From a virus (Duplodnaviria; Caudoviricetes): 64,000 nt of DNA. Position numbers and translations under genes: made by a program. A model generated the notes under the pieces. That model was not told the origin of the DNA. It saw only the letters and a list, made by a program, of their open reading frames with translations, and did not search any database. The stretch spans positions 30,006 through 94,005 of IMG/VR virus record IMGVR_UViG_2974597119_000001; one strand, written 5' to 3'. Below, piece by piece: positions 1 through 58,079 of the stretch. Numbering within the stretch: position 1 is the first letter of the stretch; each line of letters opens with the position of its first letter.

Positions 1-2550
1 GGCATACTTCTCGGCCAGCCCGTCGCGCAGGTCGCCGCGCGCGATCTCGGCGCGCACAAGGTCCAGCTTCGGCCAGAGCTCGCCGGTCAGGTACTGGTCC
101 ATCGTGGTCCACTGGCCGCCGCCGGCGTAGGCGTAGGCCGGCGAGGCGAACAGCGCGTCCTCGACCTCCTCCACATCCTTGCCGATCCGGTCGGCCAGCT
201 CCGCCGCTGAGAATGTGCCGCTGGTGCGCTCGAGCGCCAGGGACTGCGCGGCGGTGTCCAGCGTTCCCTCGACGCGGCGCGCGGCTCGGCCGGTCACGGC
301 GTCGGACAGGGAGCCGTCGGCGCTCACGGCGCCGATCAGGCGGTACAGCGTCTTGTCCTGCGACGCGGCAAGCTGGAGGTTGGCGTTCTTGCCCGGGTTG
401 CCGTGCTGGGCCACCCAGGCGCGCACACGCTCCTCGAGCGCGGGCCGGTCGACGGCCTGCCCGGTGAACAGCCGGTCGATGTCGGCCGCGATGTCCTGCG
501 CGTCGCGCACGGCGGGATCCGCCAGGAATTCGTCGACGCGGTGCCAGCGCGGCGGCCGGCCCTGCAGGATGTAGGTCACGCCGTCGACGACCTTGGTGTC
601 TCCGACCTTGGCGTTGCCATAGGCCCGCATCACAGCGCCGCCGAGCGCCTTCTTCTTCGCGGCCTCGTCATCGCCAAGCGCATCGAGCACGGCGTGCACG
701 TCCGGCGTGGCCGTCGTCACCTCGTCCGGCGTCCACTTCGCGATCTCATCCGGCACGCCCTGCATGGAGCCGGACACGGTGATGTCCTGGCCCATGCCGG
801 CCTTGGCGCGCCAGCCGGCTTCCATCGTGCCGAAGATGCTCGAGGCGCCGCGCCCGGCGAAGTAGCCGCCGGACAGGTATTCGTCGTCCCATACGCCGAG
901 CTGCTTGAGCGTGTCCCGGTTGACCGTCATCAGCGCGCCGGCCACATCGTCCGCCCTCTTGCGGAAGAACACGATGTCGGTCGTCACTCCGGTATGCGAG
1001 TGCTCGAATGCGGTATTCGGCATGCGCACGGCGCCCAGGAACTCGCCCTTTCGCAGCAGGCGTTCGCGCAAGCTCCGATTCGACTTCGCGTCCATCACGC
1101 TGGTCGGCACGATCATGGCGACGATGCCACCCGGCTTTGTCTTGTCGAGCGCGGTGTCCAGGAAGTAGCCCTCGGCCGACTTGAGGCCGGGCTTGTCGTC
1201 CTTGATCAACGGGCCGCGCAGGCCGAACGGCGCATTGCCGATCACCACGTCGAATTGCCGGTCGCCGTCCTGCGTCGCGAAGCGCTCCAGGCTCGCATTG
1301 ACGATCTCGTGTCGGTCGCCGTGCAGCACCTCCGCCACCTTGGCGCTGGTCGGGTCGAGCTCGACGCCGGTCACCTTCACGCCGGCCGGCGCGGTGTGCA
1401 GGAACACGCCAGTCGCGCAGGACGGCTCGAGCACGGTGCCGCTCGTGAAGCCCAGGTTCGCGAGCGCCGTCCACATGGCCGAGGCCACGGCCGGGTCAGT
1501 GTAGAACTCGTTCCAACTGTCGCCGCAGCCGCCGTTGCCGCTGTACTGGCGCATCAGCGCGCGGTCGGCGTCGCTGTACTCGTCCTTGTCGGCGGTCACC
1601 AGATCGACGACCTGCGCGTTGATCTCGCGGCGCTGGCCCTTGGTGATGCCAGCCGGCACGCCGAAGGAGCCGCGCTCGGCTGGCGCTATGTCCACAGCTA
1701 CCGGCGTTGTGTCCAGAGCTGCCGGCGCTATGTCCGGAGCTTTCGCCGGCGTCGCGGCCGCAAGGTGCTTTTCCCGGATGAACCACCCGCCGTCCTTCCT
1801 GAACGTGTACGGGTCGATGTCCTTCGCCTCGGCCTGCGTCAGGTCGCGACGAATGATGCCGCGCAGCGTCTTGCCCTTGCCGTTCTTGGTGACGTGCTCG
1901 ACGATCTCGGGCGCCGGGTCGGCGGTCATGCCCAGCGCTTCGCGCGGCAGGTAGTCCTGCATCTGCACGGGAACAACGCCGTTCGCCTGCTGGCGCCCGC
2001 GCGTGGTGCTCGACAGGTGCGCCATCACCTTGCCATCGTCGCGCGCGGCGCCAGTGTTCAGGACGTGCCAAGTATCGCCATCGTGCTCGACGACAGGCAG
2101 GTCGAGCGCCGGCGGGGCCACGAACTCGCTGGCGGGCTTCGGTTCGGCGGCCGGCTGCGCGAACAGATCCAGCGTCTCGCCCTTGGCCGGCTCGGCAGGC
2201 TTGAGGCCGTCGAACATGGCCGCCATCTCGGCCGGCGTCTTGCCGTCGAGCTTCCCCATGCCGGCGAAAATCTGCTGCTGCTGGCCCTCGGTCATGCCGG
2301 CCAGCATCTGCGCGAGCCCGTTCAGGCCGCCGTGGCGCGCGATGAAGGCGTCCAGCTTCGACCGCTTCGCGCGCGGCGCCGGCGCAGGCGGCGGTTCCGC
2401 AAACAGCGATCCCTGCGCATGCGGTTTGAGCGCGACCTTCTGGATCCGGATGTGCGGCTTGACGACCGTGCCGTCCTTGCGGACGTGGGCGCCCACATGG
2501 ACCGGCGTGTCAAAGAGCGCGAGCTGCGCTTTCGTGAGGAGAATGATCAT
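1..2550 (-). CDS. DarB-like large polyvalent protein, N-terminal adenine methyltransferase part (runs off the window's left edge)
   Basis: Not in the ORF track. Read by hand from ATG 2550: MIILLTKAQLALFDTPVHVGAHVRKDGTVVKPH..., with MTase motifs EFYT, VLEPSCATGVF and IGNAPFG; in frame at position 1; late promoter motif upstream. Confidence 0.8.
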   Translation of the reverse strand, partial: MIILLTKAQLALFDTPVHVGAHVRKDGTVVKPHIRIQKVALKPHAQGSLFAEPPPAPAPRAKRSKLDAFIARHGGLNGLAQMLAGMTEGQQQQIFAGMGKLDGKTPAEMAAMFDGLKPAEPAKGETLDLFAQPAAEPKPASEFVAPPALDLPVVEHDGDTWHVLNTGAARDDGKVMAHLSSTTRGRQQANGVVPVQMQDYLPREALGMTADPAPEIVEHVTKNGKGKTLRGIIRRDLTQAEAKDIDPYTFRKDGGWFIREKHLAAATPAKAPDIAPAALDTTPVAVDIAPAERGSFGVPAGITKGQRREINAQVVDLVTADKDEYSDADRALMRQYSGNGGCGDSWNEFYTDPAVASAMWTALANLGFTSGTVLEPSCATGVFLHTAPAGVKVTGVELDPTSAKVAEVLHGDRHEIVNASLERFATQDGDRQFDVVIGNAPFGLRGPLIKDDKPGLKSAEGYFLDTALDKTKPGGIVAMIVPTSVMDAKSNRSLRERLLRKGEFLGAVRMPNTAFEHSHTGVTTDIVFFRKRADDVAGALMTVNRDTLKQLGVWDDEYLSGGYFAGRGASSIFGTMEAGWRAKAGMGQDITVSGSMQGVPDEIAKWTPDEVTTATPDVHAVLDALGDDEAAKKKALGGAVMRAYGNAKVGDTKVVDGVTYILQGRPPRWHRVDEFLADPAVRDAQDIAADIDRLFTGQAVDRPALEERVRAWVAQHGNPGKNANLQLAASQDKTLYRLIGAVSADGSLSDAVTGRAARRVEGTLDTAAQSLALERTSGTFSAAELADRIGKDVEEVEDALFASPAYAYAGGGQWTTMDQYLTGELWPKLDLVRAEIARGDLRDGLAEKYA

Positions 2551-2595: not shown

Positions 2596-3105
2596 TCAGT
2601 TTGCCGGGCGCGCCGCCAAGAACAGCACCAGGGCCTTGATCATGGCCGGCTTGTCGCGCGTGGCCCGCACCTTCGTTACAAACTCGTCGACCGGCATCGC
2701 CGTGATCGGGCCGAGAAAGCGCGGATCGTCGTAGTGCTCGAGGTACGCGGCGCGCGCGGCGGCCTCGCTGGGGAAGCCCAGCATGCACTTGTCCTCGTCG
2801 TACTTGGCCCATTCGCCATACTTGCGCTGATGCACCACGTAGACCGTCGGCGCCGTCTCGAGCTCCGGGCCCAGGTACACGTCCACCTCGTCGCCGTCGA
2901 CCGCCTCCGACCGGCAGACGTAGCCGTAGTCGTACTTCATCTTCGTGCGCCAGCCCTTGCCCTCGCGCACGGACCCGGCCGGGTTCTCGATGGCGATCTC
3001 CAGGCCGTTCCACTTCACGCGCGGCTTCTTGTAGTTGCCGGCCTCGGCCTGCGCCGGCGTGGGCGGCGTCCACGCATCGGCCTTGAGCAGCACAACGGCG
3101 CCCAC
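2596..3105 (-). CDS. Inorganic pyrophosphatase-like (InPase) domain protein
   Basis: IAIENPAGSVR...YGY...DGDEVDVYLGP...YDEDKCMLGF pattern of phage polyvalent-protein InPase domains; GTG start MGAVVLLKA. Confidence 0.75.
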   Translation of the reverse strand: MGAVVLLKADAWTPPTPAQAEAGNYKKPRVKWNGLEIAIENPAGSVREGKGWRTKMKYDYGYVCRSEAVDGDEVDVYLGPELETAPTVYVVHQRKYGEWAKYDEDKCMLGFPSEAAARAAYLEHYDDPRFLGPITAMPVDEFVTKVRATRDKPAMIKALVLFLAARPAN

Positions 3106-3107
3106 TG

Positions 3108-3287
3108 CTATTCCCTGGCCTTCTGGACCATCTTCTGGCCGACGTTCGCCGTGAGATAGGCGCCGACGGACGCGATGACGACGGCGGAATACACGCCGTC
3201 CGAGATGTGGCCGAACCACACGAGGCCCGTGGCGCTGGCGAGGGTCGCGGCGGCCAACAGGAATTTGCGGCTTGCGTAACGGATCAT
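3108..3287 (-). CDS. Small two-TM membrane protein (holin-like)
   Basis: MIRYASRKFLLAAATL... with two hydrophobic segments; overlaps the upstream stop. Confidence 0.55.
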   Translation of the reverse strand: MIRYASRKFLLAAATLASATGLVWFGHISDGVYSAVVIASVGAYLTANVGQKMVQKARE

Positions 3288-4444
3288 TTCGTCTCCAGGG
3301 TCTGGCGGAGCCAGTTTCCAAAATCGGTGTCGTCGCCGGGCTCGTCCTGGATCACAGGAAGCCAGCGGCCACGGCAATGCGGGTGCTGCACGCCGGCGGC
3401 GATCCACCAGCGCTCATCCGGCTCGCGCTCGACCAGCGTGTTGCCTACGCGCTTGCGCGGCGCCGCTGAGCGGCCGATGTTCGTTTTGCCCGGCCAGATT
3501 TGCGTGTCGCCGTCCTTTTTCGGCGCATCGGCCGCCACGACCTCGACCACCTTGCCGTCGATCTTTCGGCAAAAGGCGCAGGCGTTGCGGTACTGCTCGA
3601 CGCGCTTTAGCTTCGTCCCCGGTTTCTGGCTGGAGACATAGCCCTGATTGGCGTTCTCGCCGGCCTCGGTCACAGCGATGCGGCGCCAGTCGCGGTTCAG
3701 CGTCGCGAACTCGTCGAGCAGCGTCGTCTGCAGGCTGTGAGACGGGCGCGGCGCCTCGCCGTGGCCGGCCAGCATCTGCTCCTCGGTGTGCTGCCGGATC
3801 ACGTTGCGCATGCGGTGCCGCGCGTCGTCGGCCAGCTTCTGCACGTTCTCCGCAGCGCGCGCCGCGCCGAAGCGCATGACGTTGACCTGCAGCGGCGTGA
3901 GCGGCAGGAACTGCGCCGCTTCGTCCACGGTCGACGGCAGCGCCGCGAGCACCGTGTCGGCCTGCTTGGCGTTCAGGGCCTCCATGCTGGCCTGCACGCG
4001 GCCCATGAGCGTCGCGCGCGTCGCGAGCCATTCGGCCTCGGTGCGCAGGTCGTCCGCCGGCAGGTAGCGCTGCACGAGGTAGTCGACCATCAGCATGTTG
4101 TCGTCGAGCGTCCATTCGGCCGGCGGCAGGGCCTCGAGATAGAGCTTCACCAGCTCGCGCTCGCCCTCAGTCCAGCGCTGCATGGCGCCATCGGGACGCG
4201 CCGGCACCGTGCCCGGCCGGTGCTTCTCGCCAGCCAACCACTTCTCGAGCTCGGCCCGGAAGCCATCCAGGCGCATGAGCCCGCGCTGCGTGAACAATTC
4301 GATCAGGCGTCGGACGAACGGCGACTCGTGCGGGTTCCAGATGGAATCGTCGCCGTCGTGAGTGTGCAGGGCCTTGTAAATCTGGTTGAGCGCGCGGTCA
4401 GTCTGCGGCTCGTTCAGGGCGCCCAGGTCGAATAGGAGTGCCAT
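3284..4444 (-). CDS. MuF/gp7-like head morphogenesis protein
   Basis: RIAVTEAG...CAFC...HPHCRG motifs; lies downstream of the portal. Confidence 0.7.
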   Translation of the reverse strand: MALLFDLGALNEPQTDRALNQIYKALHTHDGDDSIWNPHESPFVRRLIELFTQRGLMRLDGFRAELEKWLAGEKHRPGTVPARPDGAMQRWTEGERELVKLYLEALPPAEWTLDDNMLMVDYLVQRYLPADDLRTEAEWLATRATLMGRVQASMEALNAKQADTVLAALPSTVDEAAQFLPLTPLQVNVMRFGAARAAENVQKLADDARHRMRNVIRQHTEEQMLAGHGEAPRPSHSLQTTLLDEFATLNRDWRRIAVTEAGENANQGYVSSQKPGTKLKRVEQYRNACAFCRKIDGKVVEVVAADAPKKDGDTQIWPGKTNIGRSAAPRKRVGNTLVEREPDERWWIAAGVQHPHCRGRWLPVIQDEPGDDTDFGNWLRQTLETK

Positions 4445-4465: not shown

Positions 4466-5158
4466 TCACGCGGCCCAATCCAACGCGGGACCGGCCAGCG
4501 CCACGGGCTTCAAGGTCGCCGCATCCAGGATGGTGAAATCATGCCCTTGGAACACTGCGCCGGTGTCGATGTGGTAGACGTTGCCGAGGATCACCGGCCG
4601 TTGCAGCGGCGTATGCCCGACCACGACCGCACGCACGCCGGCCACGGGGATGTGGCGTTCCTGCTGGATCCGCTCGCGGCTCCACATTGCGAGCATCCCG
4701 AACACGTCATCTTTCAGGTACTCGGGGAAATCCGCCCAGTCGTCCGGGCAATTCGCATGCACGATCCCGACAAGGCCGTCGGCCGTCTCGAGCTCGATTG
4801 CGATGGGAAGCTCGTCGAAAGCGGCCGCGAATGCTTTTTGGCGCATCGTCGGCAGGTCCATGAACCATTGGCCGCCGTTCGCCGCGTAGGTGCGCGGGTC
4901 GTACATGCCCTTCGCCGCGTCGACTGCCATCTGCTCATGGTTGCCGCGCACCGCGTGGAACCAGGGCTGCGCCAGCCACTCCAGCGCGAGCTCGGATTCG
5001 GGCCCGCGATCCACCAGATCGCCGACGCTGAACAGCCGGTCGCGCGAAGGGTCGAACCCCATTTGATCGAGGCGCGCTTGCAGGCGCGAGAAACACCCGT
5101 GGATGTCGCCAACGATGAAATCGCGGCCGGCGCTATTGCCGCCGAATTGTTTGATCAT
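4466..5158 (-). CDS. NinI/PphA-like metallophosphoesterase
   Basis: GDIHG, GDLVDRG, RGNHE, GHTP and IDTGA motifs. Confidence 0.9.
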   Translation of the reverse strand: MIKQFGGNSAGRDFIVGDIHGCFSRLQARLDQMGFDPSRDRLFSVGDLVDRGPESELALEWLAQPWFHAVRGNHEQMAVDAAKGMYDPRTYAANGGQWFMDLPTMRQKAFAAAFDELPIAIELETADGLVGIVHANCPDDWADFPEYLKDDVFGMLAMWSRERIQQERHIPVAGVRAVVVGHTPLQRPVILGNVYHIDTGAVFQGHDFTILDAATLKPVALAGPALDWAA

Positions 5159-5160
5159 GG

Positions 5161-5739
5161 TTAGAGCTGGCTGATGCCAGTCAGGTAGGTCGTCTCGAAC
5201 AACCGCCGGAGCAAGGCATTCCGGGGCCCCATTGCATGCACGACGCTGCGCGCATGATCGAAATACTCGCGCTTGCGTTCCTGACTCCAGGGCGGCGGCG
5301 CCGCGATGATGTCGCGCAGGTTCGCCGTCTTGTCCGCCGTCTTGATCCAGGCCGCGCGGTCGCTGTAGTGCGGCGCCTTGTCGATCTGCGCCTGCTTCTG
5401 CTGCGGCTTCGGCAGCGTCTCGTCGTTGGTCAGCTCGGCCACCAAGTCGGCCACGGTCAGGCCGAACCGCGCCGCGAGCTCGGCGTGCTTGACGCCGGTG
5501 TCCTCGATGGTGTCGTGCAGGACCGCCGCGATCAGCGTGTCGCGGTCGGTGATGCCCGCCTCGTCACGCAGGATGCTCACGACGGCGCGCGGGTGCGCTA
5601 TATAAGGTGTCTTGCCGTCCTTGCGGTATTGGCCGGCGTGCTTGTGCTCGGCGAACCGGTCGGCGCGGTAGTAGGGAGAAACGACAGTCCCGTCCTGGCG
5701 GGTGTATCCGGCGACCTGCGCCTTGAGGAATACGATCAC
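5161..5739 (-). CDS. Small alarmone hydrolase (Mesh1/SpoT-type HD domain)
   Basis: HAGQYRK..PYIAHP, AAVLHDTIEDT, IKTADKTANL. Confidence 0.9.
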   Translation of the reverse strand: MIVFLKAQVAGYTRQDGTVVSPYYRADRFAEHKHAGQYRKDGKTPYIAHPRAVVSILRDEAGITDRDTLIAAVLHDTIEDTGVKHAELAARFGLTVADLVAELTNDETLPKPQQKQAQIDKAPHYSDRAAWIKTADKTANLRDIIAAPPPWSQERKREYFDHARSVVHAMGPRNALLRRLFETTYLTGISQL

Positions 5740-5948
5740 TCCGCCGCCTGCGCAGGTTGCTCCTTCTGACCGGCGCCCATCAGGGCCCGGGCTTCTTCCT
5801 CGCTGATCACGCTGCCCCAGTCGATGGGCTTGTCCTTGCTGCCCTTGTAGGGAACGAACTTGCCCTGTCCCTCGCTCCAGACCTCCTGGGGGACGCCCCG
5901 GGCCGGGCCCCGGAACAAAGCACCTTCGTTTTCGATGTAGACCATCAC
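5736..5948 (-). CDS. 70-aa protein, candidate immunity/antitoxin
   Basis: 4-bp overlaps with both the synthetase and hydrolase genes; function inferred from position only. Confidence 0.5.
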   Translation of the reverse strand: MMVYIENEGALFRGPARGVPQEVWSEGQGKFVPYKGSKDKPIDWGSVISEEEARALMGAGQKEQPAQAAE

Positions 5949-7426
5949 GTTCTCCGAATCAGCATGATCATTTTAGAGAAAGGCGCGGCCTTCTGCAAAG
6001 GTACATGGTCCTGCTGTTGCTTTCCGTCAACGCCGGACTGCCCTGCGCCGGACGCCTTGCTCCAGGCCGTGTCGTAGATTTCCTTCTGCGCCTTGAGCGC
6101 TTCGTAGAACTTCCGGTGATCCTCGTCCGACCATTTGTCGCCCGGCTCGGCCTCGCCGTACTTGGCCTGGAGGCTGCGGCTCACGTTGTAGTGCTCGTGC
6201 CCCTCCTCCTTGGCGAGCGTCATCGCTTTGACGTGAATCTGGAGCTCGGCCAGCATTCCGTTGGGCAGCTTCACGATGGTCATGAGGTCGCGGTAGCCCT
6301 CGTCGGTCGGCTTGGCGAACCGATCCTTGGGTTTCTGCGCCAGCTCGATCCCGGCGTCGCGCAGGTGCCCCAGCGCCTGTTTCACGCTGCCCATCGACGG
6401 CACGCTGATCGTGGCGCGCACGATGTCGCGCAACTGCGACCAGTCGCCGTCATAGTCGGCCTCGACCTTTTCCTTGGCGCGCTTCTCGCCCTTGAGCGGC
6501 GCGATGAACAGGAACCCGGTGTCGCTTTCCCATTCCTCCGGCGTGATGTCGTCCGGTTTCTTGCCGGACTGCAGGCCCATGACCTGGGCGACCTTGCCGA
6601 GCTGTTCGCGGAACTGGCCCAGCCCCTCGGTGCCCTTCTCGACCAGCTCCTCCCACGATTTGACCGGCTGGTTCACCTTCGCCGGCAGCTTGGCGAGCTC
6701 GTCGGCAGTGAACAGCGCGCCGCTGTCGTTGGCCGGCGCCGGCGCGGCCGCGCCCTGGTCGGCTATCTCGGACCAGCGGACCTGATGCACGCGGCCGGAC
6801 GCGTCTTTGACGTGCGCGCCATCTGCGCCCGGTTCACCGACGATCTCGCCCTCGCCCTCGAAATCGCCCGCCTTGAACCGCACCTTGTCGCCCGGCTTGG
6901 CGCGCGGCGCGCCGGCGGCGGCCGGATCCTCATGCGCCGCAGGCTTGCGCTGGGCCGGCTGGCCCTTGTCGGTGCGGACCCATTTCGTCTGCTTGCGGCC
7001 GGTCCGGTCGACGATCTGCTTGCGCGTCAGCCCGGCGCGGTTCGCCGGCGGCATGTCGTGGTTGTCGGCTTTGAAGAACAGCAGCACGCGCCCGTCGGCG
7101 CCGAGAGATTTGGTGACCAATTTGTCCTCGTCTGCGTCGGGCGGGATGGACAGGTAGCGGCGCTGGCCGGCCGCATCCTCGACGATCATGCCGTCCTCGC
7201 CCTCATCGAGGATCGTGTAGCGCTGCGCGGCGCGCTTCTTGTGCCCGAGCACCTTGCCCCAGGGGACGCGGTGATCTTCGCCATCGCAGTCAACCGTGCA
7301 GCCGTGCTTGCCGTGCGCGCGCACGCAGCCGGCGCGCGGGCCGTCGCCGTGCTGGAAATAGACGTGATCGCCGATCTCGACGCCGGGCACGCGCTCCGGC
7401 TCTTGCTGGGGCTTCGCTTTCTTCAT
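5945..7426 (-). CDS. RelA/SpoT-family small alarmone synthetase domain protein with N-terminal extension
   Basis: C-terminal LKGEKRAKEK, LRDIVRAT, GYRD and AELQIH match synthetase motifs Syn1-4. Confidence 0.8.
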   Translation of the reverse strand: MKKAKPQQEPERVPGVEIGDHVYFQHGDGPRAGCVRAHGKHGCTVDCDGEDHRVPWGKVLGHKKRAAQRYTILDEGEDGMIVEDAAGQRRYLSIPPDADEDKLVTKSLGADGRVLLFFKADNHDMPPANRAGLTRKQIVDRTGRKQTKWVRTDKGQPAQRKPAAHEDPAAAGAPRAKPGDKVRFKAGDFEGEGEIVGEPGADGAHVKDASGRVHQVRWSEIADQGAAAPAPANDSGALFTADELAKLPAKVNQPVKSWEELVEKGTEGLGQFREQLGKVAQVMGLQSGKKPDDITPEEWESDTGFLFIAPLKGEKRAKEKVEADYDGDWSQLRDIVRATISVPSMGSVKQALGHLRDAGIELAQKPKDRFAKPTDEGYRDLMTIVKLPNGMLAELQIHVKAMTLAKEEGHEHYNVSRSLQAKYGEAEPGDKWSDEDHRKFYEALKAQKEIYDTAWSKASGAGQSGVDGKQQQDHVPLQKAAPFSKMIMLIRRT

Positions 7427-9171
7427 GGCTCGATGCGGAAAACCGGCAGGCCGAACGCTTTCTGCAGCTCCTCGCCGCCGGCGGCGCCATCGTCCTGGCC
7501 GTCATCGTCGGCCGGCGGCTTGCCGAAGTTGGCGCCGGTGTCGTTCTCGCCACCCGGGCTCCCGAAATCCTCGCCGTCGTCGTCGTCATCGTCGCCGGGC
7601 GCGCCGGGCTGGCCCTGCCCCGGCTGGCCGAAATCCTGCTCCTGCGCCTGGTTCTCGGCCTGCCACACGCCGATCAGCGACGGGTTGATGGGCGCGGTGC
7701 CGATCTTCCCGCCCACGGGATCGAGGCCGTCGATGGCGCGCATCTCGTCCCAGGTCATCGCCAGCTTCTGGCGCTCGAACGCGCGCTGCTCGTCCTCCTC
7801 GTCCAGGCCGGTCCAGCGGAACACGTACTTGTCGGAGAACTCGGCGACGATGAAGTCTGAGAACAGGTTCTCGAAATAGGACAGCAGCGGACGCAGGCCC
7901 TTGTCCTTTGAATTCGCCAGCTTCTCCTCGGTGTCGTCGCCCGACAGGCTCGACGTGCCGGCTGTGAAGGACTCGAAATTGATCTCGTCCGGGGCGATGC
8001 CGTAGATCGCGCAGATGATGCTCGTGAGGAACGTCATCCACTTGGCGAACATGATCTCGTTCACCTCGACGCCGAAGTTCTCGAACGAGGCTTTCGATTC
8101 CTGGTCCTTGGAGATCATGACCGGCAGGGTCCAGGCATTGTTGATGCCCTTGACCATCGCGTTCCAGTAGCGCCGGAACGCCGCCAGATCCTTGTCGTCG
8201 TAGTTCCCCGTGAGGTGCAGCAGGCCCTTCGGGATCTGGTTCGAGTCGAAAAACTTGGTGTTGTAGGTGAAGGCGTTCAGGAACCCGGTGACCGTGCGCA
8301 CCAGCAATTCCGTCTCGGCGAAGCCGTAGCCACCTACCGTGACATCGGTGCGCGGATTGCGCGGCACGTAGATCAGGTCGTCGTAGGTGTAGACGGAGCG
8401 GATGTTCCCCTCGACGACCTGGAGCGAGAAAATCTCGTCATCGCCGCGATAGCCATCCTCGGAACACAGGCGGATCGTGCCGCCGTCGACCGCGTACAGC
8501 CCGTCCAGGCCCAGGGTCTTGTCGCGCTTCCATTCGGTTTCGATGGGCGCCGAATCCATCGTCAGGCTGTCGCGCACCAGCTTCGCCATGAAGCCTGAGA
8601 AGTTGTCGCGCTTGAGCCGCATGCGCTGGCGAGGCTTGGCCTCCCAGCCGCAGTTGAGGAAGAAATCCTGCAGCAGGAGGATGGACTGATTTTCCTCCTC
8701 GCCCGCCTTCGCCTTGTCATCCTTGAGCGCGATGCGGAAGCCCGGGCCCTTGCCGGCGCCCTGGACGCGGCAGAAGCGGTCGATCTGGCGCAGGCGCGTG
8801 AAAATCACCGCGCTCAGGATCGGCGTCTGGTCGACCATCGCGCGCATGTTCTGGAAGCTGAACGCGGTCGGCCGCTCGTACCAGTCGCCGACCAGGGCGA
8901 ACTGCCGGTCATCCAGCCAGACCGACTGCATGCCCGGCTCCTTCTCACGCACGGCGCGGCTGGGGAACGGGATGATGTTCGGCTTGGCGAGCGCCTTCGC
9001 GAATTCCTGCTGCTCGTACTGATCGCGCATGAACTCGACCATCGGCAGCATGCGCTCGACGTTGACCGACGCCGGGTCGAGCGCCGCCTTTTGGAGCTCG
9101 GTTTGCGCATCGCGCCGCTCGTCGGCGGGCGCAGCGTCGTTGTAGGCGATTTTTGCGGCAGTGTCGGTCAT
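7423..9171 (-). CDS. Portal protein
   Basis: 582 aa; LYAVDGGTIR, YVPRNPR, KFFDSNQIPKGLL, IYGIAPDEINF, GLRPLL; acidic tail. Confidence 0.85.
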   Translation of the reverse strand: MTDTAAKIAYNDAAPADERRDAQTELQKAALDPASVNVERMLPMVEFMRDQYEQQEFAKALAKPNIIPFPSRAVREKEPGMQSVWLDDRQFALVGDWYERPTAFSFQNMRAMVDQTPILSAVIFTRLRQIDRFCRVQGAGKGPGFRIALKDDKAKAGEEENQSILLLQDFFLNCGWEAKPRQRMRLKRDNFSGFMAKLVRDSLTMDSAPIETEWKRDKTLGLDGLYAVDGGTIRLCSEDGYRGDDEIFSLQVVEGNIRSVYTYDDLIYVPRNPRTDVTVGGYGFAETELLVRTVTGFLNAFTYNTKFFDSNQIPKGLLHLTGNYDDKDLAAFRRYWNAMVKGINNAWTLPVMISKDQESKASFENFGVEVNEIMFAKWMTFLTSIICAIYGIAPDEINFESFTAGTSSLSGDDTEEKLANSKDKGLRPLLSYFENLFSDFIVAEFSDKYVFRWTGLDEEDEQRAFERQKLAMTWDEMRAIDGLDPVGGKIGTAPINPSLIGVWQAENQAQEQDFGQPGQGQPGAPGDDDDDDGEDFGSPGGENDTGANFGKPPADDDGQDDGAAGGEELQKAFGLPVFRIEP

Positions 9172-18557: not shown

Positions 18558-19313
18558 TCACGACCGCCAGTCAGAGATCCCCAGCTCGTCGCGCATCACC
18601 TCGTCGACCTCATCGCCCAGGTCAGGGCGGCGAGCGGCGATGTATTGTGCCAACGCACGACTCGAGCCGCCGGCCGACTCCAGGACGCGCATCACGTCCG
18701 TGCGCCGTAGCTGCTCGACGGAATCCGCCGCGATCTTGATCAGGTGCTCCATGTCCTCGCCGCCAGCCGGCGCCGCCGAGGCACCGATACCCAGCCGCTC
18801 GTTCAGCACGCCCGGCCGGTGATTGTCCGACACGACGCCGGCCGTGCCGAAGGAATCGAACGTCGAGCGCGGGTCCGCCTTCTCGGCCTCCTCGCGCGCG
18901 CGGTCGACGTGCGCCAGGGCCTCGTCGTGCGTGTCGAACGGGCCAGCCAGCCGCGCGACGCCACGCCCCTCTCGCGCCATCGTCACGTAATACTTCCGGC
19001 GCGGGTCGTCGTCGTCCGGGCCCTGCTTGGTGCTGCGCACAGCTTCGCGCGCCTCCGCCTCGTCGGCCATGCGGTCGTAGCCCTTGGCGTCCTCGTGGTG
19101 GCCGCGCTCGCGGTACTTCCGCGCCATGTCGCGAAAGCGCTCGGAATCGGATTGCTTCGGCGCTGGCGTGGCCGCCGGCGCCGGGAACAGCGCGAGCTGG
19201 CCGGTCGCTGCCGACGCCACCGCGCCGCCCTTGCGCTCGTGCGGCTTCACGTAGCGTCCGGCGCGCATGTAGCCGGCAACATGCGATTTCAGGAACAGGA
19301 TGACGGTGCTCAT
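18558..19313 (-). CDS. Putative virion-internal protein
   Basis: Late promoter motif; N-terminus VILFLKSHVAGYMR..YVKPH resembles those of DarB and the HD hydrolase. Confidence 0.65.
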   Translation of the reverse strand: MSTVILFLKSHVAGYMRAGRYVKPHERKGGAVASAATGQLALFPAPAATPAPKQSDSERFRDMARKYRERGHHEDAKGYDRMADEAEAREAVRSTKQGPDDDDPRRKYYVTMAREGRGVARLAGPFDTHDEALAHVDRAREEAEKADPRSTFDSFGTAGVVSDNHRPGVLNERLGIGASAAPAGGEDMEHLIKIAADSVEQLRRTDVMRVLESAGGSSRALAQYIAARRPDLGDEVDEVMRDELGISDWRS

Positions 19314-29877: not shown

Positions 29878-30126
29878 TCATCTCCTCGCGGCCTGCAGCC
29901 GCTCAATTTCGGGTCGCCGCTCGGCGTCCCATATCGCCCGGACTTCCGCCTCGAGCACCTTGCGGGCGGCCGTGCCGCGCCGCCGTTCAATCCTGTCCAG
30001 GTACAGCCGCCGCTCGGCCATCGTCGGCATCCAGGCGATGGACCGCGCCTCGCATTCGTGCCGCCATTCCTCCGACCAGCTCGAGACCTGCCGGCCGTCG
30101 CGCAGCGTGACGACCGGCCGCGTCAA
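29878..30126 (-). CDS. Conserved phage hypothetical protein
   Basis: SEEWRHECEAR...RRG motif. Confidence 0.6.
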   Translation of the reverse strand: MTRPVVTLRDGRQVSSWSEEWRHECEARSIAWMPTMAERRLYLDRIERRRGTAARKVLEAEVRAIWDAERRPEIERLQAARR

Positions 30127-56421: not shown

Positions 56422-56714
56422 TGTGCCCTACCTGCGCCCTAACTCAAAATCCCGGGCGCAGTGGCCCGCTTGACTAAAGCGGGCCACCCGTGCAAATCGT
56501 TGATTTAGCAGTGATTTTTAGAGGGGCGATTGGGGCGGCCGACCGGACTTGAACCGGCGACATCCAGAATCACAATCCATTCTCAGGGTTTACCCGAATA
56601 TCACGGATGATCATTTTTGGTCATCATAACAACGGGTTAACTCAAGGATGGGCGCCTCGGCAAACCCTAAAATTCACGCCGCATCCCGGGCTTTTGCGCC
56701 CTGGATGTGCCCTA
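56422..56714 (-). repeat. Paired arm-type-like repeats flanking the attP core (56422-56441, 56695-56714)
   Basis: TAGGGCGC-N3-TAGGGCAC and TAGGGCAC-N3-CAGGGCGC. Confidence 0.65.
56531..56578 (-). other. attP core = 3' half of tRNA-His(GTG)
   Basis: Minus strand GGATTGTGATTCTGG...GGTTCAAGTCC...GCCCCA; no 5' half; upstream of the integrase. Confidence 0.85.
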
Positions 56715-56765
56715 GGCGTCGCCGATCAGCCGGCGGTGCTGAGTGAAAGAGTATCAGAGGAAAGC

Positions 56766-58079
56766 ATGCAAAAGAAGATCACGAAGTCTGTTGTCGACGG
56801 CGCCACGGCACCCGCCACGGGCGACGCGTGGATTTGGGATACCGAGCTGCAGGGGTTCGGGCTGCGCATCCAAGCGAGCGGGCGGAAGGTCTACGTGGTC
56901 CGCTACAGGACGAACGACGCCAAGCGGACCCAGCGCAAGATGAATGTGTGCCGCGCGTCCGACGCCACGCCCGACAAGGCCCGAGCGCTCGCGCGAGACA
57001 TCTTTATGAAGGTGGCCGGCGGTGAAGATCCCGCCGCCGAGCGCAAGCCCGTCAAGAACGAGTTCTCGGTCACCCTGGAGGGAATGTTCCAGGCGCGCGT
57101 GGCCCACATGAGGGCCATTGGTCGGTCGCACGCGAACGAGGTAGAGCGCGTGCTTCTGCTGTCCAAGGAAATGAATGCCGCCGACGCCCTGGGGCGCCAC
57201 AAGCACCCTTCCGAGGTTACGCCGGCAAGCATCGTCAAGTACCTGTCGAAGTATTACGAGGCCGGCCATCGCGGCGCCGCCGACAAGGCGCGAGGCTATA
57301 TCTCCGCCGCCTTCAACTGGGCCATCACCTCCGCCAACGACTACACGGTTGCCCACCGCCAGAACTGGGGCATCGAGCACAATCCCGCCGTGTCCGTGAA
57401 GAAAGACCCTGGCGCCAGCAAGGTTCGCGACCGGAACCTGTCCGCCGACGAGATCCGCATCCTGTGGATCGACTGCGAGGACGGCAACGGCGGGCTGTCG
57501 ACATCGGTCGAGGTCTGCTTGCGCATGATGATCGCCTGCGGCCAGCGCGTGAACGAAACGCTGCGGATAGATGGCATCGACATCGATCTGGAAACGAATC
57601 TCTGGACCATGCCGGCGCACAAGACCAAGGGTCGCAAGCGGCCGCACACGATCCCCCTGCCCGACTGCATCATCCCGGACCTGCGAAAGCTCAAAGAGAA
57701 GCACGGCGACGGGCCCCTGTTCCCGTCGCGCCTTGCCGAGTCCAAGACCGGCCTGCTCAGCGCGCTCGGCGTCTCCCAGGCGGTCTACAAGTACGTGCAT
57801 GCCGAGGACTGCCCGATCAAGCCGTTCCAGACACGCGACCTGCGCCGCACCTGGAAATCTCGCGCGCACGACGCCGGCGTCGACCGCTTCACCCGTGACC
57901 TGATCCAGCAGCACGCCAAGAACGACACCGGGTCGAAGAACTACGACCGCGCCGAATACCTGCCGCAGATGACCGAGGCCATGGAGAAGTGGAACGCATG
58001 GCTCGAGGGCGTCATTGGCGGCCCGACCAAGCCGCAGCCGATCAAGCAGGCGCCGACACATCTCGCGCTGGCGGCCTGA
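56766..58079 (+). CDS. int: Tyrosine integrase with arm-DNA-binding domain
   Basis: WDTELQGFGLR..SGRK; GQRVNE, KTK, RDLRRT, LIQQH, NYDR. Confidence 0.93.
   Translation: MQKKITKSVVDGATAPATGDAWIWDTELQGFGLRIQASGRKVYVVRYRTNDAKRTQRKMNVCRASDATPDKARALARDIFMKVAGGEDPAAERKPVKNEFSVTLEGMFQARVAHMRAIGRSHANEVERVLLLSKEMNAADALGRHKHPSEVTPASIVKYLSKYYEAGHRGAADKARGYISAAFNWAITSANDYTVAHRQNWGIEHNPAVSVKKDPGASKVRDRNLSADEIRILWIDCEDGNGGLSTSVEVCLRMMIACGQRVNETLRIDGIDIDLETNLWTMPAHKTKGRKRPHTIPLPDCIIPDLRKLKEKHGDGPLFPSRLAESKTGLLSALGVSQAVYKYVHAEDCPIKPFQTRDLRRTWKSRAHDAGVDRFTRDLIQQHAKNDTGSKNYDRAEYLPQMTEAMEKWNAWLEGVIGGPTKPQPIKQAPTHLALAA

Follow-up and report, generated by a model that had tools for sequence, protein, structure and literature searches.

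An exchangeable RelA/SpoT-type payload behind the portal gene of a large phage: a probable polymorphic toxin locus

Gene order and payload exchange behind the portal gene

We analysed a 64,000-nt stretch of viral DNA (Caudoviricetes), referred to below as the window, which comprises positions 30006–94005 of the 94,005-base IMG/VR record IMGVR_UViG_2974597119_000001 (rated complete by CheckV; G+C ~65%). The locus under study consists of four minus-strand genes that lie between those for the portal and a MuF-like minor head protein and encode a protein with a RelA/SpoT homologue (RSH) synthetase domain, a 70-aa protein, an HD hydrolase and a phosphatase. The genes, and the segment of them that is exchanged in a related phage, are as follows:

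7423–9171, minus strand: portal protein gene (PF04860 Phage_portal, E = 8e-17; PHROG 12, E = 1e-43)
5945–7426, minus strand: P0001, 493-aa carrier and putative toxin protein with a RelA/SpoT domain (RelA_SpoT, PF04607)
6044–6721, minus strand: RSH synthetase (putative toxin) domain of P0001, aa ~236–461 (profile, model and Foldseek)
5736–5948, minus strand: P0002, 70-aa open reading frame (ORF), probably 69 aa from the ATG at 5945 (67 homologues)
5161–5739, minus strand: P0003, Mesh1-type HD hydrolase, 192 aa (HD_4 and MESH1 matches)
4466–5158, minus strand: P0004, PPP phosphatase of lambda/NinI/PrpA type, 230 aa (Metallophos; PHROG 246)
5222–6755, minus strand: exchangeable cassette, made up of the toxin domain, the 70-aa ORF and the HD gene except its 3′ end (blastn breakpoints)

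The portal, synthetase, 70-aa ORF, hydrolase and phosphatase genes are translationally coupled: ATGA holds both the start of the synthetase gene and the stop of the portal gene, the TGA that closes the synthetase gene runs into the ATG (or GTG) with which the 70-aa ORF opens (TGATG), the stop of that ORF shares bases with the GTG start of the hydrolase gene (GTGA), and the gap from the hydrolase stop to the phosphatase ATG is 2 nt. An earlier reading of this DNA, made from the letters alone (the sequence-only reading), had placed four tightly coupled ORFs at 4466–7426 and named them as synthetase, small protein, Mesh1-type HD hydrolase and NinI-like phosphatase, with an inorganic pyrophosphatase (InPase) close by; the coordinates and coupling were borne out, as were, by profile matches, the RelA_SpoT, Mesh1-type HD, NinI-like phosphatase and InPase identities. 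The nearest isolates by DNA are the Pseudomonas putida phages Jeremy and Dolphis and the Aeromonas phage ST4 (all 90–95 kb), with a likeness of ~77% that is confined to the portal gene. Because in Jeremy the portal gene is followed directly by a homologue of the MuF-like gene, the genes for P0001–P0004 represent an insertion.

P0001 belongs to a family with 211 matches, many of them on 90–98-kb contigs. One member, P0118, is 73% identical to P0001 over residues 1–240 only and then continues into a Zeta toxin domain. On both flanks the contig encoding it (L002) shares 86% identity with the window; in place of window positions 5222–6755 it has 1.1 kb of other DNA with the Zeta toxin and a 55-aa ORF. 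The left breakpoint falls at P0001 residue ~223, the carrier end, and the right one within the 3′-terminal 60 nt of the hydrolase gene, of which L002 retains a ~60-nt stub, intergenic before the phosphatase gene. The breakpoints thus define the exchanged unit as toxin domain, small ORF and hydrolase, with the phosphatase outside.

We then surveyed 79 carrier-containing loci from IMG/VR, with ORFs typed by phmmer and hmmsearch; in all of them the carrier lies directly after the portal. Association counts were made on loci dereplicated at 90% identity and with at least 1.2 kb of downstream sequence and, since related sequences are partly dependent, the Fisher p-values are indicative only. A P0002-type small ORF accompanied 21 of the 24 RSH payloads and 1 of the 11 Zeta payloads (p = 1.5e-5), and the HD hydrolase 16 of 24 versus none of 11 (p = 1.9e-4), while for the phosphatase the difference was not significant (1/24 versus 2/11; p = 0.23). 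Both InPase and phosphatase were seen also with a Zeta payload or with no payload, the P0004-type phosphatase standing beside Zeta in L002 and L016 and missing from the majority of RSH loci. The two genes are neighbours of the cassette and not partners in it, the one for the NinI-like phosphatase being an accessory gene that shares the hot spot but is unrelated to the cassette.

Zeta loci possess a conserved ORF family of their own, of 55–63 aa and overlapping the toxin stop (L002 4887–5066, with counterparts in L012, L013, L016, L020, L021, L028 and L051), which shows no evident similarity to the P0002 family and is a candidate Zeta immunity protein. The sole Zeta locus with a P0002-type ORF, L020, has it in addition to the Zeta-type ORF and behind it, an arrangement that looks like the orphan immunity genes of polymorphic toxin loci. 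The loci thus show what defines polymorphic toxins, namely a constant N-terminal carrier, a variable C-terminal toxin and a cognate small ORF for each payload.

Synthetase, partner proteins and carrier

RelA_SpoT (PF04607) matches P0001 at aa 318–412 with 30.6 bits against a cut-off of 27. The best solved relative by single sequence is Tas1 (E = 5e-4), and a 64-sequence family profile searched against the PDB again gave Tas1 (E = 2.6e-10) well ahead of the next structure (1e-3). An AlphaFold model of aa 236–493 has a mean predicted local distance difference test score (pLDDT) of 91.8 and in Foldseek searches of the PDB found Tas1 first (E = 1.4e-8), followed by the small alarmone synthetases (SAS) RelQ and RelP, all top matches being RSH/SAS synthetases. 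By profile and by its nucleotidyltransferase fold, the domain belongs to the RelA/SpoT synthetase superfamily. The catalytic motifs are intact: K312, K320, D334, R337, G377-Y378-R379-D380, E394, Q396, K406 and H410 are invariant in 64 relatives, T339 and H398 are each kept in 61 of the 64, D334 and E394 align with D264 and E323 of RelSeq, and the syn1 lysines, the syn2 Asp, G-Y of syn3 and E-x-Q of syn4 are all present. The enzyme is therefore Tas1/Apk-like and probably active.

The 67 homologues of P0002 share a strongly conserved core, IENEGALFRGPAR...PY...WG, and sequence and profile searches with this family against Pfam, NCBIfam, PADLOC and the PDB returned no match. Five representative clusters have a P0002-type domain fused C-terminally to RSH, which points to a direct functional link between the two, and P0002 may be the cognate inhibitor (immunity protein) of the synthetase. 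Orphan homologues, 71–80% identical, were found on the chromosome of Caldimonas tepidiphila and in an integrative element. Nothing within 7 kb of them codes for RSH, carrier, portal or hydrolase, and in the Caldimonas genome there is no close RSH anywhere; the family occurred in 1 of 301 genomes of the same order (the Caldimonas genome itself), so that orphans are rare. The copy in the integrative element (L009/L010 7001–7204; 80% identity) lies beside genes for a resolvase, an integrase, an SLT protein and an AAA_13 protein. A small ORF that follows a Portal_Mu-fused RSH domain (L097) was considered as a P0002 relative and set aside, the match being weak and suggestive only (hhalign P = 0.0017, probability 16%). 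The 3′ end of the synthetase gene contains, shortly before the 70-aa ORF, a sigma-70-like site, TTTGCA-18-TAAAAT (5970–5999, minus strand). It could allow toxin-independent expression of the putative inhibitor, though the promoter and terminator scan that gave this one promoter-like site had a chance expectation of 0.6 and hence shows no excess.

P0003 is a single-domain protein (HD_4, E = 3e-21) whose best solved relative is human MESH1/HDDC3 (E = 5e-36; alignment over aa 24–179), and it keeps the HD/ED motifs (LHDT.EDT and ADK..NLRD).

Apart from the payload domain, P0001 comprises an N-terminal module and a conserved C-terminal tail:

aa 1–~225 of P0001, minus strand: N-terminal carrier module (AlphaFold2 model)
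7112–7390, minus strand: first Tudor/SH3-like β-barrel, aa ~13–105 (pLDDT >90 over aa 20–93)
7067–7087, minus strand: VLLFFKA, internal copy of the tag's hydrophobic run, aa 114–120 (predicted disordered linker)
6971–7036, minus strand: second half of the tag, GLTRKQ..D..G....WVR, aa ~131–152 (predicted β-hairpin)
6761–6901, minus strand: second Tudor/SH3-like barrel, aa ~176–222 (pLDDT >90)
5948–6001, minus strand: conserved C-terminal tail, here PLQKAAPFSKMIMLIRRT (RSH and Zeta payload proteins)

In the AlphaFold model of residues 1–235 (pLDDT 79) the barrels span aa 20–93 and 181–217, the linker at aa 105–126, which holds VLLFFKA, is disordered (pLDDT <50), and the hairpin covers aa 134–150. 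The barrels showed a generic likeness to Tudor/KOW/SH3 folds (VIA; Z 6–7.8; the second matched over 172–226), and fold searches with the N-terminal module gave nothing beyond generic small β-barrels (Z <8) and viral matches of low template-modelling (TM) score. The tail follows the pattern L-x-K-[A/S]-x5-hydrophobic run-[K/R][K/R]; it ends RSH and Zeta payload proteins alike, and in the fusions of RSH to the small domain it is placed at the junction.

Parts of the carrier also occur separately. In some dozen loci (L068–L079) the portal is followed by the first barrel alone, as a protein of ~95 aa; in L080 (764–2386) and L087 (6989–8491) this barrel is fused in frame to a MuF-like protein, which ties the carrier to MuF. 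In L080 the tag and second barrel begin the RSH protein, with a VLLFFKA-type motif 9 residues from the N-terminus; in L084 they stand alone. The whole carrier is found with no payload in L015 and L017–L019, and carrier and RSH domain are separate genes in L096. With the N-terminal module alone, tblastn against phage records recovered the first barrel in Morganella phage Mecenats66 and nothing else.

Across the whole genome, a hydrophobic run followed by K-[A/G/S] was found at eight places: within the first ~10 residues of the hydrolase, the InPase, a DarB-like protein, an SNF2 helicase and the product of 18558–19313, internally in the synthetase, and in two cases in frames clear of any listed gene. 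The bipartite tag itself consists of a hydrophobic run that ends in K-[A/S] and a following G-Y/H-x-R...V..H/Y-x-R hairpin. The 18558–19313 product (minus strand; 251 aa, no recognised family) begins MSTVILFLKSHVAGYMRAGRYVKPHER, a full bipartite tag, far from the head operon. Downstream of the locus, this census and the sections below involve three further genes:

3284–4444, minus strand: P0005, MuF-like minor head protein, 386 aa (ESM Atlas structure match)
2596–3105, minus strand: InPase, an inorganic pyrophosphatase of polyvalent-protein type that starts MGAVVLLKA (PF18823, E = 3e-45)
1–2550, minus strand: start of a DarB-like methyltransferase/helicase of >2000 aa that runs past the window edge (full bipartite tag at its N-terminus)

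On the hydrolase the tag is N-terminal (GYTRQDGTVVSPYYR, 23–25 aa; 5665–5739; compare synthetase aa ~131–152) and forms an extension ahead of the Mesh1 core, the MESH1 alignment starting at residue 24, that is kept in homologues. It is present on 11 of the 14 hydrolase genes that follow an RSH gene in the late operon and absent from three opposite-strand hydrolase genes in other loci. The tag is real and modular, and the claim of the sequence-only reading that synthetase and hydrolase have it in common stands, with the qualification that the synthetase copy is internal (aa 114–120). By analogy with the internal proteins of phage T4 and with DarB of phage P1, of which the first 30 residues suffice for packaging (PMC9024508), it may be a capsid address or a protease site. 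The P1 DarB N-terminus, which has been defined by experiment as a capsid-targeting sequence, was compared with the tag and showed no similarity.

An exhaustive search yielded 2,230 representative clusters with an RSH domain of the P0001 type. Among the best 143 of these, the carrier is present in 56, 81 contain no other searched module and so have other carriers or stand alone, and the remaining 6 pair the RSH domain with InPase, hydrolase or the small domain and lack the carrier. Members of the RSH clade also lie C-terminally in fusion proteins with MuF, Portal_Mu or SNF2/RadC, as in a 2,115-aa protein with MuF and RSH (P0201), a RadC/SNF2 protein (P0290) and a Portal_Mu–ART–sigma70 protein (P0320). 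A 1430-aa polypeptide (P0220) joins carrier, RSH and Acb1, and InPase is fused to the RSH domain in P0233, P0218, P0239 and P0241, of which P0233 and P0218 also have the carrier and, like P0220, are polyvalent forms of the present system. The large fusions are polyvalent proteins as described by Iyer et al. (PMC5512222), presumably injected, and these wider architectures support virion delivery by association only.

A polymorphic toxin reading and its alternatives

We consider it rather probable that the head-morphogenesis operon in the window includes a polymorphic toxin locus of the phage, in which the toxin is paired with an inhibitor protein and an antidote enzyme. P0001 would combine the carrier, two Tudor/SH3-like barrels around the tag peptide, with a Tas1/Apk-like 3′-pyrophosphokinase payload that would poison the cell by turning ATP or ADP, most likely into (p)ppApp, and so draining ATP. 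The coupled 70-aa protein would inhibit the toxin and the Mesh1-type hydrolase would degrade its product, and together they would shield the producing cell while toxin is made late in infection. Most likely, carrier and tag would bring the toxin into the procapsid, next to the portal and the MuF-like protein; from there it would pass with the DNA into the next cell.

This arrangement recalls the Apk2 MuF toxins, described in prophages of Bacteroides caccae, Streptococcus pneumoniae and Mannheimia haemolytica (PMC10083569, PMC12226406), in whose loci a small immunity gene is always there and a hydrolase only sometimes (PMC10083569). The analogy to Apk2–IapK–Aph1 drawn in the sequence-only reading holds in that both have a head-module toxin with a C-terminal Tas1-like RSH domain, a near-constant small ORF (IapK being Tis1-like) and, in some loci, a hydrolase. 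The differences are several: the carrier is here Tudor/SH3-like and not MuF, and the synthetase, as had also been claimed, is not fused to MuF, since a Pfam search of P0001 gave neither a MuF match nor a PAAR domain and the MuF-like protein is a separate downstream gene (3284–4444); no similarity of the small protein to Tis1/IapK could be detected; the hydrolase, tagged at its N-terminus, is Mesh1-type and not Aph1-type; syn3 differs; and the phages have ~90-kb, myovirus-like genomes, whereas Apk2 occurs in typical temperate prophages. The locus would work like Apk2–IapK–Aph1 but falls outside that family.

Other known systems are alike in part. Tas1–Tis1 (Apk1, the (p)ppApp synthetase effector of the Pseudomonas aeruginosa type VI secretion system (T6SS); PDB 6ox6) is closest in structure and sequence and has the D-x-x-R-x-T of syn2 in common with P0001, which by contrast has no PAAR domain and no T6SS context, its delivery being presumed to occur via the capsid. 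Polyvalent proteins (Iyer et al. 2017, PMC5512222), which are predicted to be packaged and injected, likewise bring the RSH clade, InPase, DarB-like methyltransferase/SNF2 and MuF domains into head-proximal genes. P0220, P0290 and P0320 contain, as such proteins do, at least two effector domains in one polypeptide, whereas P0001 has one, the other enzymes being separate genes with a common tag, and the RSH gene here has immunity-like partners, none of which are described for polyvalent proteins. The tag resembles the capsid-targeting sequences of T4 internal proteins and P1 DarB (PMC9024508) in being a short N-terminal peptide on unrelated cargo that includes a DarB homologue, but has no sequence similarity to that of P1 DarB and only a putative function. 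Finally, toxSAS and fused CapRel-type systems also pair an RSH toxin with a neutralising small protein or small alarmone hydrolase (SAH), with a small domain fused in some relatives here; unlike these stand-alone two-gene modules, the present locus is linked to head genes and rides on a swappable carrier.

If so, the P0001 family would provide large phages of Proteobacteria with another carrier, independent of MuF, for this type of toxin, and it comes with a natural RSH/Zeta payload swap, a new candidate inhibitor family and a short common tag usable as a test of a portable capsid-loading signal. Virion carriage and the role of the MuF/Apk2 polymorphic toxins are an open question (PMC10083569); were packaging true here, toxin delivery by the capsid would not be tied to MuF, and the tag would provide a compact handle for loading proteins into phage heads.

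Several findings weigh against a polymorphic toxin with two antidotes. Three of the 24 RSH loci are without the small ORF and 8 of the 24 without the hydrolase. P0002 shows no detectable similarity to Tis1/IapK (including the Tas1–Tis1 PDB entry) or to any solved or Pfam family, and its fusions with RSH fit an autoinhibited enzyme as well as they fit a separate immunity protein. The hydrolase is of Mesh1 type, its match to Aph1 (PDB 7smg) being weaker (E = 6e-4), and the tag that it bears implies co-packaging of toxin and antidote, which is hard to reconcile with a simple toxin role. Being in the late operon, the immunity genes could not give early protection to a newly infected host. A tblastn search of 50,697 phage records (INPHARED) with the synthetase found no isolate phage, and packaging is what we infer from its setting. 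The acceptor substrate is likewise uncertain, since P0001 has D-L-M at syn3, which is neither of the published signatures set out next.

A variant that we regard as rather unlikely keeps the same delivery and assigns the enzyme another product, either (p)ppGpp or tRNA pyrophosphorylated at the CCA end, as by FaRel2/CapRel. In its favour, Mesh1-type hydrolases act on (p)ppGpp, and Kurata et al. reportedly found in 2021 that SAHs reverse tRNA pyrophosphorylation. The residue signatures that separate adenosine from guanosine 3′-pyrophosphokinases (Paulet et al., PMC12226406) are R-x-T at syn2, G-x-N at syn3 and x-H at syn4 for Apk enzymes, with S-x-H at syn3 for RSH enzymes. The departure of syn3 from both speaks for this variant, and the motifs do not settle the substrate, given that substitutions at them left Apk2 specificity unchanged (PMC12226406). 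Against it, Tas1 is the best match by sequence, profile and fold, syn2 (R-A-T) and syn4 (I-H, matching the H of Apk2) are Apk-like and conserved, and 24 of the 64 relatives have the Apk-type N at syn3 (D-x-N). For P0001 we thus retain (p)ppApp as the most likely product.

A wider reading, doubtful when its parts are taken jointly, would make the toxin locus one case of a general, programmable capsid-cargo system. The bipartite peptide would address unrelated enzymes to the procapsid, namely the toxin, the alarmone hydrolase, InPase, the DarB-like protein and the SNF2 helicase; the prohead protease would cut at K|[A/S] sites after the carrier and before the C-terminal tail, which would free fusion forms of their inhibitor domain and so arm the toxin solely inside the capsid; and the orphan copies of the 70-aa inhibitor would be a counter-measure of bacteria and competing mobile elements.

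The sequence-only reading had itself proposed one nucleotide-signalling kit, in which synthetase, hydrolase, phosphatase and InPase are co-injected and pulse or erase alarmones at the start of infection; we now think this improbable. The tag on the hydrolase, on InPase and, internally, on the synthetase is in its favour, as are the four InPase–RSH fusions and the presence on the carrier of anti-CBASS Acb1 (P0220, a BFVD match), which fits early-acting effectors. The phosphatase, however, has no tag, and both it and InPase are found just as well beside Zeta or where there is no payload; as they are not co-inherited with the synthetase, and only the 70-aa ORF and hydrolase travel with RSH, the claim of one dedicated system gains no support. 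Nor is the PPi-removing partner that it invoked needed, because the RSH reaction releases AMP, not pyrophosphate (PPi). Moreover, the exchange of RSH for a classical Zeta toxin with its own small ORF is the behaviour of a toxin–immunity pair. Since the hydrolase is tagged, it may still be co-injected with the synthetase, though the comparative data do not call for this; as a whole, they fit an exchangeable toxin accompanied by two antidotes better than a device that pulses or erases alarmones.

An intracellular toxSAS toxin–antitoxin that is never packaged and acts as an exclusion or addiction module, for example against competing phages in the infected or lysogenic cell, would be in line with the toxSAS pairs with small or SAH antitoxins that phages are said (Jimmy et al., in 2020; summarised in PMC12226406) to carry, with the tyrosine-recombinase-family match described below and the temperate or plasmid-prophage lifestyle it would allow, and with the RSH–small-domain fusions, which recall the fused toxin–antitoxin proteins of CapRel type, but it is quite unlikely given that the toxin always rides on a carrier right after the portal, where it is coupled to the late genes for structural proteins, that the first barrel of this carrier is fused to MuF-like proteins and relatives of the domain to portal or MuF, and that the tag is on 11 of 14 late-operon hydrolases and absent from the three encoded on the opposite strand.

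Neighbouring genes and minor observations

The MuF-like assignment of P0005 comes from structure: Pfam gave no match to MuF (PF04233) and Phage_min_cap2 only at E = 0.014, whereas its ESM Atlas model matched clusters of PF04233 with TM 0.49–0.61. A homologue in Yersinia phage fHe-Yen8-01 is annotated as a 'particle associated protein'.

P0004 matches Metallophos (E = 2e-15) and PHROG 246, 'NinI-like' (E = 2e-77), has the motifs GDIHG, GDLVDRG and GNHE, and carries no tag. We considered it as an ApaH-like nucleotide enzyme tied to the synthetase and rejected this, as the N-terminal metal motif alone matches ApaH and the two genes are not co-inherited.

A 490-aa ORF on the plus strand (56607–58079) matches Phage_integrase (PF00589) with E = 4.8e-10, above the cut-off. 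This tyrosine-recombinase-family match may mean that the phage is temperate, or the enzyme may resolve plasmid dimers.

Between the MuF-like gene and InPase lies a short ORF (3108–3287, minus strand), whose positional counterpart in L002 is a called 59-aa gene (7030–7209).

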